DNA from: Escherichia phage vB_EcoM_WFL6982
Length of the DNA stretch: 64,000 bases
Strand: one strand, 5' to 3'
Sequence record: MK373774.1
Made by a program: the position numbers and the translations under genes. Below, one piece after another: positions 29,540 through 60,636 of the stretch (position 1 is its first letter; each line of letters opens with the position of its first letter). Below the pieces are notes generated by a model. The model did no database searches and was not told where the DNA came from. It saw only the letters and a list, made by a program, of their open reading frames with translations.

Positions 29540-29578
29540 TTTGTTGGTACAGGTCTCTATAATAACATAACCTGTACC
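29540..29578 (-). promoter_or_regulatory. Early promoter (TTTACT ... ATTATA)
   Basis: Minus strand gtttactttggtacaggttatgttattatag. Confidence 0.45.
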
Positions 29579-50120: not shown

Positions 50121-53100
50121 ATGGTTGACATCAAACGTAAGTTCAGGGCCGAAGATGGTCTTGATGCAGGCGGTGATAAGATAGTTAACGTTGCGCTTGC
50201 CGACCGCACAGTTGGCACCGATGGCGTGAACGTTGACTTTTTGGTGCAAGAAAACACCGTACAGAATTATGACGATACGCGCGCGTATACAAAAGATTTT
50301 ATTGTTCTTTATAATAATCGTTTTTATCAAGCTTTAAGCGATATTCCAGCTCCGGCAGGCCCTTTCTCTTTGGTTAAATGGAAGGCAACTCGTGCAGATG
50401 CAGAATGGATTACAGTTCAAGGCGGAGATTTCCAATTATCAGTAGGTAACTCTATTGCGGTTGATACTTCAGCTGGCACTGATATTAATTTCACTTTGCC
50501 TCAAAATCCTTTAGATGGCGATACAGTTATTTTGTCTGATATTGGCGGTAGAGTAGGCTATGTAAAAGTTCAAATTACGGCAGAGGCTCAAAGTATTGTA
50601 AACTTTAGAGGACAACAGGTTCGTTCAGTTTTAATGACGCACCCAAAATCTAAAATGGTCTTCATTTTTAGCAACCGCCTATGGCAAATGTATGTTTCTG
50701 ATTACGAACGTAATGCAGTCACAGTAACTCCTGCTACGCCATATCAAGCACAACCTAATGATTTTATCATTCGACGTTTTACATCAGCCGCTCCTATTAA
50801 TATTACATTGCCTCGTAATGCTAATAATGGCGATATTATTAATTTAGTGGATTTAGACAAATTAAACCCATTATATCACACAATTGTCAAAACTTACGAT
50901 GATACAACTTCTATACGAGAAGCTGGTGTTCATGTAGCAGAAGGACGTAATTTTGCTGATGCTCTTTTTATTTTTGATGCAGCATCTAGTTTGTGGAGAG
51001 TTTGGGAAGGTGACCAGAAATCTCGTTTACGTATAGTTCGTAATGATACTGATTTACGCCCTAATGAAGAAGTTCTTGTTTTTGGAACTGATAATAATAC
51101 AATCTCGACGGTAAATCTTACTTTGCCTACAGATATTTTGTCTGGCGATACTGTTAAAATATCGTTGAATTATATGCGTAAAGGGCAAACTGTAAAAATT
51201 AAAGCTGCTGAAGGCGATACAATTGCTAGCAGTATTTCTTTATTACAGTTCCCAAAACGTTCGGAGTATCCACCTGATGCACAATGGGTTTCTGTTAGTG
51301 AGCTGGAATTTAATGGCGATACTTCGTATGTACCTGTACTTGAGTTAGCTTATATAGAAGATTATTCATCTGAAACAAAATATTGGGTAGTTCAACAAAA
51401 CACTGTAACCGTCGAACGAGTCGATGCATCGAGCAATACAACTCGAGCTCGTTTAGGTGTTATTGCTCTTGCTTCTCAAGCGCAAGCAAATGTTGATTTA
51501 GAAAATGCTCCTGGTAAAGAACTGGCTATTACTCCGGAAACATTAGCAAATCGTACAGCAACTGAAACTCGTCGTGGTATTGCTCGTATTGCAACAACTG
51601 CACAAGTTAACCAGAATACCGATTTTGCATTCCAAGACGACTTGATTATTTCTCCTAAGAAATTGAACGAACGTACAGCAACTGAAACCCGTAGAGGTGT
51701 TGCTGAAGTTGCAACTCAGGCTGAAACTAATGCTGGAACAGATGATACCACTATTATTACTCCTAAGAAATTGGATGCCCGTCAAGGTTCTGAAGTTTTA
51801 TCTGGTATTGTAAAATACACATCTACGACTGGTACTACAGCTGCTACTATTCGTGGTAATGCTGGGACTAACGTTTATAACAAAGCCGTAGATAATTTAA
51901 CTATTTCTCCAAAGGCCCTTGACCAATATAAAGCTACCCCTACTCAGCAGGGTGCAGTAATTCTTGCTATTGAAAGCGAAGTTATCGCTGGCGAATCACA
52001 AGCTGGTTGGGCTAATGCTGTAGTGACCCCTGAAACTCTGCATAAGAAAACTTCTACTGATGGACGTATTGGTTTAATTGAAATTGCTACGCAAGCAGAA
52101 ACTAACACTGGAACTGATTATACTAGAGCAGTAACGCCTAAGACGTTAAATGATAGGAAAGCTACGGAAGGATTATCTGGCATAGCCGAAATTGCTACGC
52201 AAGTTGAATTTGATACTGGAACTGACGATACTCGTATCTCGTCTCCACTGAAAATTAAAACTCATTTTGATTCTTCTGACCGTACCAGTGTTAATTCTGA
52301 TTCCGGACTTATTGAAGAAGGAACCTTGTGGAACCATTATACTCTTGATATTTCTAAAGCAAATGAAACACAACGTGGTACACTTCGTGTAGCGACCCAA
52401 GCTGAATCTAATGCAGGAACTTTAGATGACGTTCTTATTACTCCTAAAAAGCTTTTAGGGACTAAGTCCACTGAAACGTCTGAAGGCGTAATTAAGGTTG
52501 CTACTCAGGCTGAAACTGTAACAGGAACTTCTGCTAATACTGCTGTATCTCCTAAGAATTTAAAATGGATTGTTCAATCAGAACCATCATGGACTGCTAC
52601 TACGGCAATTCGTGGATTCGTTAAAACTTCATCTGGTTCTATTACATTTGTTGGTAATGATACAGTTGGTTCAACACAATCTTTAGAATCATATGAGAAA
52701 AATAGCTATGCGGTATCACCATATGAATTAAACCGTGTACTTGCTAACTACTTACCGTTGAAAGCTAAAGCAGCTGATAGTAATTTGTTAGATGGTCTAG
52801 ATTCTCTTCAGTTCATCCGTAGAGACATCGACCAGACGGTTAATGGTTCTTTAAGTCTTACTAAACAGACCAACCTGAGTGCTCCTTTAGTATCTACAAG
52901 CACTGCTTCTTTTGGTTCCGAAGCATCTGTTACTCGTAGATTAACTCTTAATGACTCTAGCGGTTCCGAAATATTTTTCACTAAAGGAACCCAATCTCTT
53001 AGTAATAAAGAGAATTTCGTTGTTAGAGCATGGGGCAATAGCGCTACAGATGGTGCCCGTGATACAGTATTTGAAGCGGGTGACGAAACCGGATACCATT

Positions 53101-53954
53101 TCTATTCTCAGCGCGCTGCTGATAATAAAGTATCATTTAATATTAATGGAACACTTTATTCAACAGGTATTGTTTCTACAAATGGATTAAATGTTACAGG
53201 TGTTTCTACCTTTACAGGGCCTATTAGTGCTACAGGCGAAATTGTTTCTAGTTCTCCTATTGCATTCAGAGCTATTAATGGTAACTATGGTGTTATGCTT
53301 TATAATGCTGGTAACAGTTCTTATATTGCATTAACTAACTCAGGTGACCAGACCGGGACGTTTAATAACTTACGCCCGATCACGATTAACAACGCCACAG
53401 GCTTAGTTCGTCTTGACAATGGTGTTCAAATCACGAGTGGTGCAACAATAACTACCGGTGGGTTAACTGTAAATAACAGAATTATTTCTAACGGCGTTAA
53501 AACCGCCACTGTTTATACCGATAAACCAACAGCTTCTACTGTAGGTTTTTGGTCTATTGACATTAACGATTCTGCTGTATATAGCCAATTCCCTGGATAC
53601 TGGACGCGTGATAACAAAGGTAACCGTGACCAAGAAATTAAATATCCTGGTACTTTGACTCAATTCGGCAATAGCTTAGATTCGCTTTATCAGGATTGGA
53701 TTTGTTATCCTACAGGTGCAAATGGCGGTAGCATTCGATATACTCGTACCTGGCAGAAAAATAAAGATGCTTGGACTTCATTTGCAATGGTATTTGATAG
53801 TGGCAACCCACCTTCACCTAGCGATGTCGGTGCTATCCCATCTGATAATGCTGTTATTGGAAACCTTACTATTCGAGACTTCTTACAATTAGGAAATGTG
53901 AGAATTGTTCCAGACCCGGTTAACAAAACAGTTAAATTTATATGGGTTGAATAA
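50121..53954 (+). CDS. 34: Long tail fiber proximal subunit gp34
   Basis: 1277 aa; internal ~40-aa repeats; synteny 34-35-36-37. Confidence 0.93.
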   Translation: MVDIKRKFRAEDGLDAGGDKIVNVALADRTVGTDGVNVDFLVQENTVQNYDDTRAYTKDFIVLYNNRFYQALSDIPAPAGPFSLVKWKATRADAEWITVQGGDFQLSVGNSIAVDTSAGTDINFTLPQNPLDGDTVILSDIGGRVGYVKVQITAEAQSIVNFRGQQVRSVLMTHPKSKMVFIFSNRLWQMYVSDYERNAVTVTPATPYQAQPNDFIIRRFTSAAPINITLPRNANNGDIINLVDLDKLNPLYHTIVKTYDDTTSIREAGVHVAEGRNFADALFIFDAASSLWRVWEGDQKSRLRIVRNDTDLRPNEEVLVFGTDNNTISTVNLTLPTDILSGDTVKISLNYMRKGQTVKIKAAEGDTIASSISLLQFPKRSEYPPDAQWVSVSELEFNGDTSYVPVLELAYIEDYSSETKYWVVQQNTVTVERVDASSNTTRARLGVIALASQAQANVDLENAPGKELAITPETLANRTATETRRGIARIATTAQVNQNTDFAFQDDLIISPKKLNERTATETRRGVAEVATQAETNAGTDDTTIITPKKLDARQGSEVLSGIVKYTSTTGTTAATIRGNAGTNVYNKAVDNLTISPKALDQYKATPTQQGAVILAIESEVIAGESQAGWANAVVTPETLHKKTSTDGRIGLIEIATQAETNTGTDYTRAVTPKTLNDRKATEGLSGIAEIATQVEFDTGTDDTRISSPLKIKTHFDSSDRTSVNSDSGLIEEGTLWNHYTLDISKANETQRGTLRVATQAESNAGTLDDVLITPKKLLGTKSTETSEGVIKVATQAETVTGTSANTAVSPKNLKWIVQSEPSWTATTAIRGFVKTSSGSITFVGNDTVGSTQSLESYEKNSYAVSPYELNRVLANYLPLKAKAADSNLLDGLDSLQFIRRDIDQTVNGSLSLTKQTNLSAPLVSTSTASFGSEASVTRRLTLNDSSGSEIFFTKGTQSLSNKENFVVRAWGNSATDGARDTVFEAGDETGYHFYSQRAADNKVSFNINGTLYSTGIVSTNGLNVTGVSTFTGPISATGEIVSSSPIAFRAINGNYGVMLYNAGNSSYIALTNSGDQTGTFNNLRPITINNATGLVRLDNGVQITSGATITTGGLTVNNRIISNGVKTATVYTDKPTASTVGFWSIDINDSAVYSQFPGYWTRDNKGNRDQEIKYPGTLTQFGNSLDSLYQDWICYPTGANGGSIRYTRTWQKNKDAWTSFAMVFDSGNPPSPSDVGAIPSDNAVIGNLTIRDFLQLGNVRIVPDPVNKTVKFIWVE

Positions 53955-53962
53955 GAGGTTAT

Positions 53963-55087
53963 ATGGAAAAATTTATGGCAAGGTTTGGACAGGGATACGT
54001 CCAAACGCCGTTTTTATCGGAAAGCAATTCAGTTAGATTTAAGCTAAGTATAGCGGGTTCATGCCCGCTTTCAACAACTAATCCGTATATTTTATTCCAA
54101 AATGAGCCTTTAGGGTTGCAGTCTTTTGGTATTGGACTAAATGTTAGGGTGATAAATCCGGAAAATGGAACTATAGTTGATAGTAAATTATACAATTTTG
54201 CGCCTACAAATAATGCAACTTCAGCTGCATTTATTTCGTTTGTTAATACATACGCAGATAATTTCATTTTCGCATTTATTTCCAATAACAAATTTAATTT
54301 GCCACCAGAAATAATTGAATGGTTTAAAGCTGCTGGGAGTTCAGTTATACCGTCAATTGAAGTTGCTAGTCTTGTTGATATTTCATATTCAGCGTTTTAT
54401 GTTTCAGGTAAAAATACTATTGCATTAGAACACATAAAATACAGTAATAAGAAAACAATTTCTGATTACGCAACTCCATTAGATATTGTATATGACTCTA
54501 TTGCTGATATAGGTGCTACCGGCTATCCTAGACGTACATATGAAGCTCTAGAAACGTTTTTATCTCCTGTTGGAGGAACTAACAATGAAATAAAAAGGAT
54601 GCCTACATCATCCCTTGTTACTCCTATCGCAAACTATGGATTAAAGCCTACAGATTTTCTTTATTTGAAATTTCAATTAATGGCTGATGAAGCATTACTA
54701 GAGGAAGGAACCGCAAGACTTTCAATTCGTTTCTTTAAGACTCCATCTAGCTCTCCTATATCATCTAAAGATATAAACTTTGATGGAACTGCTGGTGAAT
54801 GGAAGTTATACGAAGAATATGTTGAAATACCAGCCGAAGCCGATGGCTTTACGGTATATTGTTACCGTACGGCCCCAGTCGGTCAAGGTGGACTAAGAAA
54901 TGTTATTTTCACTGAAGTATCATGTAACGGAAGTATAGCAAAACCTGCTGAGTTTGGTATAAACGGTATTCGTGTTAATTACATTGATGAATCATTAACC
55001 GGTAATGATATAATGGACTTGCCTACTCAGTTATCTAACGACACAGGTAAGGTATTTGGGCAGGAATTTAAAGAGTACACAGAATAA
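53963..55087 (+). CDS. 35: Long tail fiber hinge connector gp35
   Basis: 374 aa; synteny. Confidence 0.85.
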   Translation: MEKFMARFGQGYVQTPFLSESNSVRFKLSIAGSCPLSTTNPYILFQNEPLGLQSFGIGLNVRVINPENGTIVDSKLYNFAPTNNATSAAFISFVNTYADNFIFAFISNNKFNLPPEIIEWFKAAGSSVIPSIEVASLVDISYSAFYVSGKNTIALEHIKYSNKKTISDYATPLDIVYDSIADIGATGYPRRTYEALETFLSPVGGTNNEIKRMPTSSLVTPIANYGLKPTDFLYLKFQLMADEALLEEGTARLSIRFFKTPSSSPISSKDINFDGTAGEWKLYEEYVEIPAEADGFTVYCYRTAPVGQGGLRNVIFTEVSCNGSIAKPAEFGINGIRVNYIDESLTGNDIMDLPTQLSNDTGKVFGQEFKEYTE

Positions 55088-55088
55088 A

Positions 55089-55108
55089 GGAGACTTCGGT
55101 CTCCTTTT
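55089..55108 (+). terminator. Terminator hairpin ggagac-ttcg-gtctcc + T-run
   Basis: After gene 35. Confidence 0.6.
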
Positions 55109-55811: not shown

Positions 55812-58800
55812 ATGGCTACTTTAAAACAAATACAATTTAAAAGAAGCAAAACTGCAGGAGCACGTCCTGCCGCTTCAGTATTAGCCGAAGGTGAATTGGC
55901 TATAAACTTAAAAGACCGTGTACTTTTTACTAAAGATGACCAAGGAAATATTATTGATCTGGGTTTTGCTAAAGGTGGTAGTATTGACGGGAATGTTATT
56001 CATACTGGCAATTATAACCAAACTGGCGATTATACTTTAAATGGCACCTTCACTCAGACAGGTAATTTTAATTTAACCGGTATTGCTCGAGTAACACGTG
56101 ATATTATTGCCGCTGGGCAGATTACGACTGAAGGCGGAGAACTTATTACAAAAAGTTCAGGTACAGCACATGTTCGTTTTCATGATTCGGCTGATCGTGA
56201 ACGTGGCATTATTTATTCACCGGCTAATGATGGATTAACTACGCAAGTAGTTAATATCCGCGTTAAAGACTACGCCGCTGGTGATGAAAGCACCTATGCA
56301 TTTTCGGGCAGTGGACTATTTACTTCACCTGAAGTATCAGCATGGAAATCTATGTCAACTCCTCAGATTTTGACAAATAGAGTTATTACTAATAATAAAT
56401 CTACGAGCGATTATGACATTTATTCTATGGCAGACAACGTTCCATTGTCTGAAAGCACTACTGCTATTAATCATCTCCGTGTTATGCGCAATGCTGTAGG
56501 CGCTGGTGTATTCCATGAAGTTAAAGATAATGATGGAATAACTTGGTATACTGGAGATGGCTTAGACACTTATCTTTGGTCGTTTACCTGGTCCGGTGGA
56601 TTGAAAGCAGGCCATTCTATTTCTGTTGGTACTCCTGGTGGCAATAAAGGATACTCTGAATTAGGGACTGCTTCAATTTCTCTTGGTGATAATGATACTG
56701 GATTTAAATGGCATCAGGATGGATATTTCCATACAGTAAACAACGGAACAAGAACTTTCATTTACGGTCCTGCGGAAACACAAAGCCTTAGAAAAATGGT
56801 TATGGGTTATTCTCCGGATGGTGTTCTTATGACAACGCCACCGACAGAAAACTATGCTTTGGCTACTGTTGTTACTTACCATGATAATAATGCATACGGC
56901 GATGGTCAAACACTTTTAGGATATTATCAAGGTGGTAATTACCACCACTATTTCCGTGGTAAAGGCACTACAAATATTAACACTGCAGGCGGATTGTTAG
57001 TTACTCCAGGCAATATTGACGTTATTGGTGGTTCTGTTAATATCGATGGTAGAAATAATTCTTCTACGCTGATGTTTAGAGGTAACACAACAGGATACAG
57101 CTCAGTTGATAATATGGATATTAAAGTTTGGGGTAATACGTTTGTTGATCCAAGCGGAGGTATCCGTAAAAACATTATGGAAATTTCTGATGCAACTAGC
57201 TGGATGAGCTATATTCAAAGACTTACTACTGGCGAAGTAGAAATGAACGTTAATGGTTCATTTGAATCATCTGGTGTTACTGCTGGAGATAGAGGAGTTC
57301 ACACAACAGGTGAAATTTCATCTGGAGCAGTGAATGCTCTTCGTATTTGGAACGCAGATTATGGAGCCATTTTTAGACGTTCAGAAGGAAGTCTTCATAT
57401 TATTCCAACTGCTTATGGCGAAGGCAAAGATGGCGATATTGGTCCACTTCGCCCGTTTAGTATGGCTTTAGATACCGGTAAAGTTACTATTCCAGATTTA
57501 CAATCAAGTTACAATACGTTTGCTGCTAACGGTTATATTAAATTTGTTGGTCATGGAGCGGGTGCCGGCGGTTATGACATTCAATATGCTCAAGCGGCTC
57601 CTATTTTCCAGGAAATTGATGATGATGCTGTAAGCAAATATTATCCTATTGTTAAACAGAAGTTTTTAAATGGTAAAGCTGTTTGGTCTTTAGGTACTGA
57701 AATTAGTTCAGGTACATTCGTTATTCATCATCTGAAAGAAGATGGTTCACAAGGCCATACGTCTCGTTTTAATCAAGACGGTACTGTTAACTTCCCAGAT
57801 AACGTTTCTGTCGGCGGCGGTGAAGCTACTATTGCTCGCAATGGTAATATCTGGTCTGATATCTGGAAAACGTTTACTTCAGCAGGCGACGTAACTAATA
57901 TTCGCGATGCAATAGCTACTCGTGTTGCTAAAGAAGGTGATACGATGACCGGTAGGTTGACTTTATCTGCTGGAAATGATGCCCTTGTTTTAACTGCAGG
58001 CACGGGCGCTTCATCGCACATCCGTAGTGATGTAGGTGGTACAAATAATTGGTTTATAGGCAAAGGCGGCGGTGACAATAGTATAAGTTTTTACAGTTAC
58101 ATTACACAAGGCGGTGTAAACATAACAAATAACGGCGAAATAGCGCTTTCTACTCAAGGACAAGGAACATTTAATTTTAATAGAGACCGCCTTCATATAA
58201 ACGGTACACAATGGACCGCACACCAGGCTGGCGATTGGGGAAATCAATGGCGCCAGGAAGCTCCTGTATTTGTGGATTTTGGTAATGTCGGTAATGATAG
58301 TTATTATCCTATTATTAAAGGAAAATCTGGTATTACTAATGAAGGGTATATATCTGGTGTAGATTTTGGTATGCGACGCATTCCTAATAACTGGGCACAA
58401 GGTATTATTCGTGTAGGTAATCAGGAAAACGGTTCCGACCCACAAGCTATCTTCGAATTCCACCATAATGGAAACATGTACGTTCCTGACATGGTTAAAG
58501 CTGGAGTAAGAATATCAGCTGGTGGAGGTGACCCTGCATGGACAGGCGCATGTGTTGTTATTGGTGATAATGACACCGGATTAGTTCATGGTGGTGACGG
58601 CCGAATCAATATGGTTGCCAATGGTATACATATTGCAAACTGGGGAGCAGGCTATCAATCTCATCCTGGGCTTTGGGATTCAACCGGTGCTTTTTGGACA
58701 GAAGTTGGAAGAGCTATCGTTTCTCATGGGCATCTCGTTCAGGCAAATGATAGTTATTCAACGTTTGTCCGTGATGTTTATGTCCGTTCTGATATTCGTG

Positions 58801-59123
58801 TTAAAAAAGACCTTGTTAAATTTGAAAATGCTTCTGAGAAGCTTTCAAAAATTAATGGTTACACTTATATGCAGAAGCGAGGCCTAGATGAAGAAGGTAA
58901 TCAAAAATGGGAACCTAATGCCGGTTTAATTGCCCAAGAAGTTCAAGCTATTTTACCTGAATTAGTTGAAGGCGATCAGGATAGTGAAGCTTTACTTCGT
59001 TTGAACTATAACGGTGTAATTGGTTTAAATACAGCTGCAATCAATGAGCATACTGCAGAAATTGCAGAACTTAAATCAGAAATTGAAGAACTTAAAGCAT
59101 TAGTTAAATCATTGTTAAAATAA
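55812..59123 (+). CDS. 37: Long tail fiber distal subunit gp37 (T2 type, with C-terminal intramolecular chaperone domain)
   Basis: 1103 aa; last ~111 aa begin at SDIRVKK and contain [15 protein letters not shown], resembling peptidase S74 self-cleaving chaperone domains. Confidence 0.93.
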
Positions 59124-59128
59124 TAAGA

Positions 59129-59142
59129 GGGGCTTCGGCCCC
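59129..59142 (+). terminator. Hairpin ggggc-ttcg-gcccc between 37 and 38
   Basis: UUCG tetraloop hairpin; RBS GGAGG follows. Confidence 0.45.
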
Positions 59143-59949
59143 TTGGAGGTTTATATGGCAGTAACAGGACCGTGGGTAGGATCGTCTGCAGTAGTTAATA
59201 CAGGACAAAATTGGATGGGCGGCGCGGCCCAACGATTAAGAATGGGTGCTCCATTTTGGATGAGTAATATGATAGGTCGATCTGTTGAAGTAATTCACAC
59301 GCTTGGAGCAGACCATAACTTCAATGGTCAATGGTTCCGAGATAGATGTTTTGAGGCAGGTAGTGCACCTATAGTGTTTAATATTACTGGAGATTTAGTA
59401 TCATATTCTAGAGATGTGCCACTTTTCTTTATGTATGGGGATACGCCTAATGAATATGTTGTTCTTAATATTCATGGTGGTGTTCATATGTGGGGTCGTG
59501 GTGGTAATGGTGGATACACTCACTCAGGAGGCGACGGTAACGGTACACAAGGCGGTCATGTTATTCAAAATGATATCGGTGGACGGCTTCGTATTTGGAA
59601 CTACGGTGTTATAGCTGCTGGTGGTGGCGGTGGTGGTGGTATTGCATATCGTCCACACTCAGGGGCAAACTGGCAAGATATCGGTGGCGGTGGTGGTCGA
59701 CCTTTCGGTGGCGCTGGCGGCGGCGGCGTACGTGGCGGTGGAGCTTCTTATGAAGGTCCGGGTGGTGGATATAACTATGGTAACGCTCACTCTGGGCAGG
59801 GTGGCAATGCTGGTGCAGCCGGACAAAACGCGTGGTCTGACGGCGGTAAAGTTCTAAAAGTTGGAGCAGGTGGTGCGTCTGGTCATGCAGTGTTTGGATC
59901 TTCTCCAACTTGGGGTGCTGTTGGAACAATTTACGGACCAAGAGTATAA
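59143..59949 (+). CDS. 38: Tail fiber adhesin gp38 (T2/T6 type with glycine-rich motifs)
   Basis: 268 aa; poly-Gly islands GGGGGGG, GGGGG, GGAGGGG separating variable segments. Confidence 0.88.
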
Positions 59950-59979
59950 TTTGAATAAATATCCTTAAAAGGAGGGTCT

Positions 59980-60636
59980 ATGGCAGCACCTAGAATATCA
60001 TTTTCGCCCTCTGATATTCTGTTGGGTGTTCTAGATCGCTTGTTCAAAGATAATGCTACCGGGAAAGTTCTTGCTTCCCGGGTAGCTGTCGTAATTCTTT
60101 TGTTTATAATGGCGATTGTTTGGTATAGGGGAGATAGTTTCTTTGAGTACTATAAGCAATCAAAGTATGAAACATACCGTGAAATTATTGAAAAGGAAAG
60201 AAATGCACGCTTTGAATCTGTCGCCCTGGAACAACTCCAGATAGTTCATATATCATCTGAGGCAGACTTTAGTGCGGTGTATTCTTTCCGCCCTAAAAAC
60301 TTAAACTATTTTGTTAATATTATAGCATACGAAGGAAAATTACCTTCAACAATAAGTGAAAAATCACTTGGAGGATATCCTGTTGATAAAACTATGGATG
60401 AATATACAGTTCATTTAAATGGACGTCATTATTATTCCAACTCAAAATTTGCTTTTTTACCAACTAAAAAGCCTACTCCCGAAATAAACTACATGTACAG
60501 TTGTCCATATTTTAATTTGGATAATATCTATGCTGGAACAATAACTATGTACTGGTATAGAAATGATCATATAAGTAATGACCGCCTTGAATCAATATGT
60601 GCTCAGGCGGCCAGAATATTAGGAAGGGCTAAATAA
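59980..60636 (+). CDS. t: Holin T
   Basis: 218 aa; N-terminal TMD VAVVILLFIMAIVW and large periplasmic domain; T4 T-like. Confidence 0.93.
   Translation: MAAPRISFSPSDILLGVLDRLFKDNATGKVLASRVAVVILLFIMAIVWYRGDSFFEYYKQSKYETYREIIEKERNARFESVALEQLQIVHISSEADFSAVYSFRPKNLNYFVNIIAYEGKLPSTISEKSLGGYPVDKTMDEYTVHLNGRHYYSNSKFAFLPTKKPTPEINYMYSCPYFNLDNIYAGTITMYWYRNDHISNDRLESICAQAARILGRAK

Follow-up and report, generated by a model that had tools for sequence, protein, structure and literature searches.

A probable two-component long-tail-fibre tip with predicted OmpA specificity, encoded by genes 37 and 38 of Escherichia phage vB_EcoM_WFL6982

Introduction

In phages S16, T2, T6 and PP01 the distal tip of the virion fibre carries a gp38 monomer, which is needed for adsorption (PMC6851490, PMC3157838, PMC12892980). 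The literature describes these adhesins as having five glycine-rich motifs (GRMs) and ten polyglycine-II (PGII) helices, and the gp38 of T4 is unrelated to them in sequence (PMC6851490). The role of tryptophans in docking of gp38 (PMC6851490), as well as that of the last strand of S16 gp37 (PMC7917993, PMC6851490), has been described, and a lock-and-key pairing of the gp37 tip with the N-terminus of gp38 has been reported (PMC3157838). The S16 fibre subunit is itself processed, as gp37 is cut at DLNVS^SDRRIKK with autocleavage of its last 113 residues (PMC7917993). In the T5 fibre the cut falls at Thr1263^Ser1264, so that the serine departs with the chaperone; the dyad is Ser1264/Lys1269 with K1269 as the base, and the chaperones of both T5 and K1F have a central trimeric coiled coil (PMC4690869). 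With regard to receptor use, the dependence of FL08 and AV119 on OmpA is experimental (Lutz et al. 2025, PMC12032242), and in silico R165 of FL08 is a main predicted OmpA contact in the "type 1" adhesins (PMC12032242).

Here we describe the corresponding genes of Escherichia phage vB_EcoM_WFL6982 (Mosigvirus). All coordinates refer to the window, a 64,000-nt stretch of sequence record MK373774.1, and all features lie on its plus strand. The locus very probably encodes the receptor-recognition tip of a T-even-type long tail fibre, built from two components as in the T2/S16 kind; OmpA is the predicted receptor.

Genes 37 and 38 and their boundaries

Gene 37 (55812..59123) encodes the distal long-tail-fibre subunit of 1103 residues and gene 38 (59155..59949) the receptor-recognising adhesin of 264 residues, and the two translations are identical over their full lengths to QBQ77005.1 and QBQ77006.1 of vB_EcoM_WFL6982, respectively. 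The gene order, g34-g35-g36-g37-g38-t-asiA, is that of the T-even phages, with g38 flanked by the holin gene t and by g37, whose product has an S74 chaperone at its end. The interval delimited in the first-pass annotation, 58788-59949, proved to be exact, since the Ser993 codon, with which SDIRVKKDL opens, begins at 58788 and the stop codon of gp38 ends at 59949. In both GenBank records (WFL6982 and its sibling WFK) gp37 is labelled "hypothetical protein".

The intercistronic region between g37 and g38 contains a C(UUCG)G hairpin, GAGGGGC-UUCG-GCCCCUU (59127..59144; MFE -13.8 kcal/mol, z -1.55), which adjoins the ribosome-binding site of g38 and has no T-run 3' of it on the plus strand. The WFK record annotates the g37/g38 hairpin as a putative terminator. 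The start codon of g38 is the ATG at 59155, with a Shine-Dalgarno sequence (GGAGG) at 59145-59149. A length of 268 residues had originally been given for gp38, attributable to the mechanical open reading frame start at TTG 59143; it is corrected to 264 residues by the position of the Shine-Dalgarno sequence, by the Gp38_N profile, which opens at residue 5 of the 268-residue frame, and by the GenBank protein of 264 residues.

Domain architecture and mosaic composition of gp38

Two Pfam profiles, both covered end to end and both far above their cut-offs of 25 bits, account for gp38. The N-terminal attachment domain (residues 1-40; 59155..59274) matched PF21721 (Gp38_N; 74.8 bits, E 5e-21), and the receptor-binding part, a beta-helix with a polyglycine (PGII) sandwich (residues 45-264; 59287..59946), matched PF05268 (GP38; 226.3 bits, E 5e-67). 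In a search against PDB sequences, residues 1-261 matched gp38 of PP01 (9V85, E 3e-67) and of S16 (6F45_D, E 2e-46). Column by column, the GRMs line up with the crystallised S16 and PP01 sequences, while the variation among 12 adhesins is concentrated between them, and a PGII conformation of the glycine-rich part is predicted from this sequence alignment. Glycine makes up 26.5% of gp38 overall and 52 of the 133 residues (39%) at 113-245; the GC content is 52% at 59500-59999 against 31-42% in neighbouring intervals. Rather than the three poly-glycine islands first described, five runs of at least three glycines were counted (G7 at 156-162, G5 at 177-181, G4 at 188-191, and G3 at both 194-196 and 203-205).

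The attachment domain carries W7, W20 and W35, which correspond to the docking tryptophans W7, W20 and W36 of S16. Over residues 1-45, identity is 98% to FL08/FL31 and 57% to Ox2/T6. The protein is hence a mosaic, in which residues 1-45 are of the PP01/FL08/FL31 docking subtype and residues 46-264 are Ox2-like. The gp37 tip and chaperone are likewise of the PP01/FL08/FL31 docking subtype, and across the phages compared the subtype of the gp38 N-terminus co-varies with that of the gp37 tip in 10/10 cases. Among characterised relatives, Ox2 comes nearest by sequence in the specificity domain, and PP01/FL08/AV119/FL31 do so in the docking module. The original placement of gp38 among the adhesins of the T2/T6/Ox2/S16 kind, as opposed to the T4-type chaperones, is upheld by the adhesin families and structures matched (PMC6851490, PMC12892980). 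The accompanying description "T2-type" holds as a class label but not as a statement of closeness, as the proteins of T2 itself are distant (gp38 42%, gp37 tip 17% and chaperone 29% identical).

Receptor loops and predicted receptor

Equivalents of the five receptor loops, defined after PMC12892980, were mapped by alignment to PP01. Loop A corresponds to residues 120-129 (59512..59541), loop B to 165-175 (59647..59679; including R166, equivalent to FL08 R165), loop C to 189-193 (59719..59733; including V192-R193), loop D to 207-211 (59773..59787; NYGNA) and loop E to 227-236 (59833..59862), the last being identical in Ox2, FL08 and AV119. An alignment of the variable segments to adhesins of known specificity, the check proposed in the first-pass annotation, placed the OmpA-specific Ox2 closest (94% identity over residues 113-264), followed by FL08 and AV119 (82%). 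Over the same residues identity was at most 56% to T6 (Tsx), PP01 (OmpC), FL31 (OmpF), T2 and S16, and this ceiling holds for the gp38 binders of Tsx, OmpC, OmpF and FadL. The predicted type 1 OmpA contacts R165, R181 and R262 of FL08 (PMC12032242) are kept as R166, R182 and R263; for the further predicted contact N217 (FL08, Lutz et al.) the alignment has D at FL08 217 and N218 here, the numbering not being reconciled. A gp38 fragment of RB33 (146 residues) falls in the same 90% cluster, and RB32 and RB33 are reported to use OmpA plus LPS (PMC3157838).

The receptor is most probably OmpA because the loops are those of Ox2, which would place the protein in the type 1 class together with FL08 and AV119. 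Phage M1 also uses OmpA, and its gp38 is only 49% identical in the receptor-binding domain. The OmpA-binding "type 2" adhesins are moreover nearer to the Tsx binders (PMC12032242), and similarity is therefore an imperfect predictor of the receptor. That the variable segments set specificity, as proposed at the outset, is what published work has concluded for this family (PMC3157838, PMC12032242) and fits the restriction of coding differences from WFK to gp37 and gp38.

A private residue pair in loop C

The sibling phage vB_EcoM_WFK (MK373775.1; Korf et al. 2019, PMC6563267) is 99.95-99.996% identical in DNA over ~61.7 kb. Within this span the only coding differences are gp37 T781P and gp38 residues 192-193 (V192Y/R193S in WFK); the genomes also differ by a 2-bp intergenic indel, and gene 34 of WFK holds an adapter-derived artefact of 313 bp. 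The change Y192V/S193R corresponds to TATTCT -> GTACGT, i.e. four substitutions in six nucleotides, in frame, and is not what a sequencing error would typically produce. Residues 192-193 are Y-S in WFK, Ox2, FL08, AV119, SfPhi01 and the nine other members of the 90% cluster that were read, and the V192-R193 form was found in no other sequence examined; in IMG/VR the VR form had 0 matches and the YS form 4.

These observations bear on an alternative reading, in which Y192V/S193R, perhaps together with gp37 T781P, has shifted or extended the specificity towards another outer-membrane protein or LPS, so that OmpA would not be the receptor, or not the only one. The private character of the pair, its in-frame origin through clustered substitutions and its mapping to the loop-C position of PP01 all speak for such a shift. 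Moreover, mutations in the hypervariable regions of Ox2 gave variants of altered receptor specificity, according to the account of Drexler 1989 and 1991 given in PMC12892980, a few HVS residues suffice to change receptors in the pairs T6/PST and T2/SV76, and Ox2 and RB32 need LPS as a second receptor component (PMC3157838). Conversely, loops A, B, D and E are like those of OmpA binders (one change each in B and D relative to Ox2), the three arginines are kept, and the PP01 loops whose testing is described in the available part of PMC12892980 are B, D and E, loop C not being among those shown there to matter. A shifted receptor thus appears unlikely, and OmpA is retained as the prediction.

WFL6982 and WFK might tentatively be regarded as a natural host-range variant pair, doubtful as this is at present. 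If it were true, with an altered range of OmpA alleles or an extended receptor as in the Ox2 h mutants, the pair would offer a clean two-residue handle on loop C. We know of no functional test of loop C as yet in the gp38 adhesin family. The literature located on WFL6982 or WFK contained neither receptor data nor comparative phenotypes.

The gp37 tip and its C-terminal chaperone

The mature tip of gp37 (residues 912-992; 58545..58787) is homologous to the beta-helix tip of S16 gp37 (6F45_A, E 2e-44), the alignment beginning at query residue 20 in the PDB sequence search with the gp37 tail. Its last strand is DVYVR, the predicted docking face for gp38 once cleaved. The junction, DVY[VI]R directly followed by SD.R.K, is kept in 10/10 phages aligned. 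These 81 residues immediately precede the extreme C-terminal 111 of the 1103 residues (993-1103; 58788..59120), assigned from Pfam, PDB and AF2 evidence as a Peptidase_S74 intramolecular chaperone with predicted release by autocleavage. The S74 profile search, named beforehand as a possible refutation of this assignment, gave a match of PF13884 to residues 993-1052, scoring 48.5 bits where the cut-off is 22 (E 1.1e-12) and spanning profile positions 1-57 of 58. The catalytic motif S993-D-I-R-V-K998 (58788..58805) contains the Ser/Lys dyad with Ser+5 spacing, as in T5, and in the alignment its counterpart in the MyRF ICA domain (chain 7DC3) is ADLRAK. Among 20 homologues S993, D994 and K998 are conserved in at least 90%, and GLIAQ and PELV are invariant.

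An AF2 model of residues 963-1103 had a mean pLDDT of 82.5, reached values of at least 90 at 87 residues, and comprised the elements E55-63, E69-76 and H104-140. The last of these is the long C-terminal helix at gp37 1066-1102 (59007..59117; model residues 104-140), modelled with 10-residue block means of 92-97 (model residues 101-140; last residue 74). The tail thus contains the 15-residue stretch singled out in the first-pass annotation, and the terminal segment then called coiled-coil-like is heptad-like and modelled as one helix. The sole significant folds retrieved by Foldseek against the PDB were the MyRF ICA domain (7DC3; E 3.6e-6, probability 1.00) and K1F endosialidase (3GW6; probability 0.98-0.99); the TM-scores are modest (0.57 to MyRF), the model being a monomer of a domain which acts as an intertwined trimer. 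In combination, the profile match above cut-off, the homology to the S16 tail, the conserved dyad and the MyRF and K1F folds confirm the S74-type chaperone proposed for the gp37 tail.

The cut is predicted at R992^S993, because S16 and T5 cut before the homologous serine; the original proposal of cleavage after the serine is revised to this extent. By analogy with S16, T5 and K1F (PMC7917993, PMC4690869), we infer that autoproteolytic release would take place after trimer folding. An S74 domain surviving only as a degenerate remnant kept on the mature fibre, with gp38 docking elsewhere or not at all, is highly improbable: every invariant motif is preserved together with the Ser/Lys dyad, identity to the counterparts in PP01, FL08, AV119 and FL31, i.e. 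phages with working gp38 adhesins, is 96-98%, and a T5 fibre without cleavage cannot compete for the receptor (PMC4690869), so that retention would be expected to block function. More improbable still is a gp38 acting as a T4-type assembly chaperone outside the virion with gp37 itself binding the receptor. In its favour, the gene does occupy the T4 gene 38 position and homologues are called "distal long tail fiber assembly catalyst" in some database records, but only adhesin families and structures were matched (PF05268, PF21721 and two adhesin crystal structures along the whole of gp38), T4 gp38 is unrelated in sequence (PMC6851490), and gp37 lacks the T4 needle domain, matches the S16 tip instead and ends in a predicted self-cleaving S74 domain that would make a gp38-type chaperone unnecessary.

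Discussion

For the preferred two-component tip, the following sequence of events is proposed. Gene 37 would be expressed as a 1103-residue precursor, in which the S74-type chaperone (993-1103) makes the distal beta-helix trimerise. After folding of the trimer, Ser993 would be activated by Lys998 and cut R992-S993, and the chaperone trimer would depart, exposing the DVYVR end of the fibre. On the model of S16, one gp38 monomer would then dock on this end via its N-terminal three-helix domain, with W7, W20 and W35 inserting into three equivalent pockets. The remainder of gp38 would form a beta-helix with a projecting polyglycine-II sandwich, whose five loops between the glycine-rich motifs may contact the receptor.

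The module is an ordinary, already described T-even receptor-recognition tip, textbook biology in a deposited genome. The first-pass observation was real and its interpretation is supported as essentially right; the mechanism, the structures and the logic of receptor prediction have all been published, and current understanding is unchanged. What the analysis provides is annotation: gp37 can be annotated as the distal subunit of the fibre, carrying an S74 chaperone that cleaves itself and having a predicted mature end at R992, and gp38 as an adhesin that is Ox2-like and probably specific for OmpA. In phage therapy and host-range engineering, it yields a predicted receptor and a 45-residue docking module to keep in swaps of the specificity domain.

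Comparison with known systems

The gp37-gp38 complex of S16 (PDB 6F45; Dunne et al. 2018) shares the trimeric beta-helix tip followed by a chaperone of ~111-113 residues cut before SD..(I/V)KK, and its gp38 has the same three docking tryptophans, beta-helix and PGII sandwich. It differs in its gp38, which has an overall identity of only 43% and unrelated loops, and in the receptor, which for S16 is Salmonella OmpC. PP01 gp38 (PMC12892980) is the best PDB sequence match, shares the docking subtype and is accompanied by a gp37 chaperone 98% identical to that of WFL6982, whereas identity in the receptor-binding region is a mere 47% and the receptor of PP01 is OmpC of O157.

The specificity domain is closest to that of the OmpA-specific Ox2 (X05675.1; Henning group), with only 11 differing positions across residues 46-264 (identity 97% for 46-112 and 94% for 113-264). 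The alignment shows no change in loops A and E and one change each in B (N172K) and D (N207D). Where WFL6982 has GVR at residues 191-193, Ox2 has RYS, and Ox2 also differs in its T6-type docking subtype. FL08 and AV119, by contrast, share the docking subtype and keep the arginines equivalent to R166, R182 and R263, with a receptor-binding domain 82% identical; the 18% divergence is spread over the loops, and the two are Tequatrovirus rather than Mosigvirus.

The chaperone is of the type found in K1F endosialidase (3GW6), T5 pb1 (4UW8) and the MyRF ICA domain (7DC3), with which it has in common the profile, the Ser-x4-Lys dyad, a beta-hairpin followed by a long helix, and a position C-terminal to a trimeric beta-helix. 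Identity to these in fold alignments is low (11-26%), and the domain, with 111 residues, does not reach the length of its T5 (133 residues) and K1F counterparts. By analogy, its release would here not uncover a receptor-binding surface as such but create the site at which a second protein docks.

Locus and gene content

The interval 58788-59949 opens at the Ser993 codon of a 1103-residue ORF (55812-59123) encoding gp37, the distal long-tail-fibre subunit, and closes with the stop codon of the adjacent downstream ORF, which encodes the glycine-rich tip adhesin gp38. The surrounding gene order, gp34 (50121-53954), gp35, gp36, gp37, gp38, holin t and asiA, is that of the T-even phages. Both proteins are identical to deposited records of Escherichia phage vB_EcoM_WFL6982 (QBQ77005.1 and QBQ77006.1), and the sequence is thus already public. 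The nearest entry in the phage collection is the sibling vB_EcoM_WFK (WFK, MK373775.1), a Mosigvirus originating from sewage in Germany (Korf et al. 2019, PMC6563267); the records of both phages annotate gp37 only as 'hypothetical protein'.

Two profile matches elsewhere in the fibre genes lie just above threshold. Residues 58-131 of the hinge protein gp35 (53963-55087) match PF15711 (ILEI, 'interleukin-like EMT inducer'; E 6e-7, 30.3 bits against a curated threshold of 27). The C-terminal trimerisation domain of Gp34 (PF21446) is matched by gp37 residues 453-550 (57168-57461) with E 1e-6 and 29.4 bits, the threshold being 27, which suggests a module common to the proximal and distal fibre subunits.

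The gp37 chaperone and its predicted cleavage site

Peptidase_S74 (PF13884, 'chaperone of endosialidase') was matched by gp37 993-1052 with 48.5 bits against a Pfam cut-off of 22, and the last 192 residues of gp37 match the gp37 construct of phage S16 in PDB 6F45 (E 2e-44). A weaker match places SDIRVKK of the tail opposite ADLRAKE of the MyRF ICA domain. When gp37 is aligned with 19 homologues taken from databases, at least 90% conservation is seen for S993, D994 and K998, and GLIAQ and PELV are invariant. An AF2 model of gp37 963-1103 (mean pLDDT 82.5) displays two beta-hairpin strands and a single long terminal helix (gp37 1066-1102), and its significant PDB matches were limited to 3GW6, the intramolecular chaperone of the K1F endosialidase (probability 0.98-0.99), and the ICA domain of MyRF (E 3.6e-6). 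The S74-like character of this tail, proposed in the first-pass annotation, is therefore clear from the profile searches.

In S16, the last 113 residues of gp37 are freed by a cut between two serines, DLNVS^SDRRIKK (PMC7917993). The scissile bond of T5 pb1 is Thr1263-Ser1264, with the serine activated by Lys1269 and departing with the chaperone, as was also observed in K1F (PMC4690869). From these cut positions and the sequence at the corresponding site, cleavage of WFL6982 gp37 is predicted at R992^S993. The released piece would be exactly the 111 residues delimited at the outset, although the bond itself had been placed one residue too late, after the serine, since both S16 and T5 cut before it. 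All ten T-even phages aligned retain the motif DVY[VI]R|SD.R.K, despite three very different tip subtypes.

Start and architecture of gp38

The ORF list gives gp38 as 268 aa from TTG 59143, the length also adopted in the first-pass annotation. The true start is ATG 59155, giving 264 aa, because the match to the Gp38_N profile sets in at residue 5 of the longer ORF, GGAGG lies five bases upstream of that ATG, and the GenBank records of both WFL6982 and WFK start there. The protein matches PF21721 (Gp38_N) and PF05268 (GP38), both end to end, as well as the crystal sequences of gp38 from PP01 (9V85, E 3e-67) and S16 (6F45_D, E 2e-46, residues 1-261). Three tryptophans, W7, W20 and W35, are present, the S16 counterparts of which fit into pockets on the gp37 trimer (PMC6851490). 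Five glycine runs of at least three residues were counted, rather than the three poly-glycine islands initially described, and glycine makes up 39% of residues 113-245. In published accounts, the gp38 family has five glycine-rich motifs and four hypervariable segments (PMC3157838, PMC12032242) or, in structural terms, ten PGII helices with five loops at their distal side (PMC6851490, PMC12892980). The raised GC content at 59500-59999 (52%, GC skew +0.30), compared with 31-42% in neighbouring windows, is due to GGN glycine codons in the specificity domain. Among relatives in the gp38 cluster, phage vB_EcoM_G5211 has gene 38 split into 37-aa and 245-aa products, the cause being a frameshift close to the gene's 5' end or an error of sequencing there.

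Intercistronic C(UUCG)G tetraloop hairpins were found between g37 and g38 (59127-59144) and between g35 and g36 (55086-55107). The former adjoins the g38 Shine-Dalgarno sequence and is labelled 'terminator' in the WFK annotation; that role was rejected, as there is no T-run downstream on the + strand and the z-score is only -1.55. It is treated here as an ordinary T-even intercistronic hairpin, outside the mechanism.

Mosaic structure of the fibre tip

Against SfPhi01, FL08, AV119, PP01 and FL31, identity amounts to 80-97% in the gp37 tip and 96-98% in the chaperone, whereas tip and chaperone share only 14-30% with Ox2, M1, T6 and T2. In gp38, identity over residues 1-45 is 98% to FL08 and FL31 and only 57% to Ox2; from residue 46 on, identity to Ox2 is 94-97%. 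These contrasting values indicate different histories for a docking module (the gp37 end plus the gp38 N-terminus) and a specificity module (the receptor-binding remainder of gp38). The joint between them lies at the linker after the attachment domain of gp38.

Predicted receptor

Eleven further gp38 sequences, the majority from phages whose receptor is known, were aligned with that of WFL6982, and identity was computed per segment. Phage M1 uses OmpA as its receptor. Over residues 113-264, identity is highest to the OmpA phage Ox2 (94%), followed by FL08 and AV119 (OmpA, 82%), FL31 (OmpF, 56%), T6 (Tsx, 50%), M1 (OmpA, 49%), PP01 (OmpC, 47%), T2 (43%) and S16 (41%). FL08 and AV119 carry 'type 1' adhesins for which OmpA dependence is experimental, and three arginines predicted by Lutz et al. 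to contact OmpA are conserved in WFL6982 (PMC12032242). Furthermore, a gp38 fragment of RB33 falls in the same 90% cluster, and the receptors of RB32 and RB33 are OmpA plus LPS (PMC3157838). On the strength of the segment identity, the arginines and the RB33 clustering, OmpA is the best prediction for the WFL6982 receptor and a reasonably probable one; confidence was held at this level because small changes in the gp38 loops can alter the receptors used (PMC3157838, PMC12892980).

Differences from the sibling phage

Comparison with WFK covered about 61.7 kb. The sole difference outside the fibre genes is a 2-bp (TC) intergenic indel at 29554-29555, between the gp30.7 and gp30.8 homologues, within the inverted repeat GGTACAGG...CCTGTACC and adjoining a TATAAT. 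Gene 37 carries one SNP at 58152 (T781P). In gene 38, four of the six nucleotides at 59728-59733 are changed in frame (GTACGT here, TATTCT in WFK), replacing Y/S of WFK by V192/R193. All coding differences thus lie in the distal fibre, in agreement with the earlier suggestion that host range is set here. An apparent third fibre-gene difference, 313 extra bp at the 3' end of WFK gene 34 (MK373775.1 about 149749-150061; window 53696-53750), was rejected as an assembly artefact, since the Nextera adapter CTGTCTCTTATACACATCT stands at the start of the extra bases and a 55-bp duplication flanks them. The artefact breaks WFK gp34 into fragments, whereas gene 34 of WFL6982 is a single intact ORF of 1277 aa.

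The V192/R193 pair maps onto the PP01 position of loop C, one of the five receptor loops (A-E). YS stands at these positions in WFK, Ox2, SfPhi01, FL08 and AV119, and in the nine further 90% cluster members whose sequences were read; no other sequence examined carried VR, and a search of IMG/VR returned four matches to the YS form and none to VR. Host-range or receptor data were not found for either sibling in the text of Korf et al., which gives virion dimensions only (PMC6563267).

Relation to known fibre tips

The T4 gp38 is, as originally noted, a chaperone, and is unrelated to the adhesin (PMC6851490, PMC12892980). The label 'T2-type' holds as a class name but not for T2 itself, whose gp38 is 42% identical. 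The mosaic fits the published picture of lock-and-key subtypes plus a shuffled specificity domain (PMC3157838), and our guess is that the PP01/FL08 docking subtype corresponds to the 'K3-like' subtype of Trojet. The gp37/gp38 tip is a well-understood module, with structures solved and the genome deposited; just one item is mildly new, the private variant in loop C that separates the two sibling phages.
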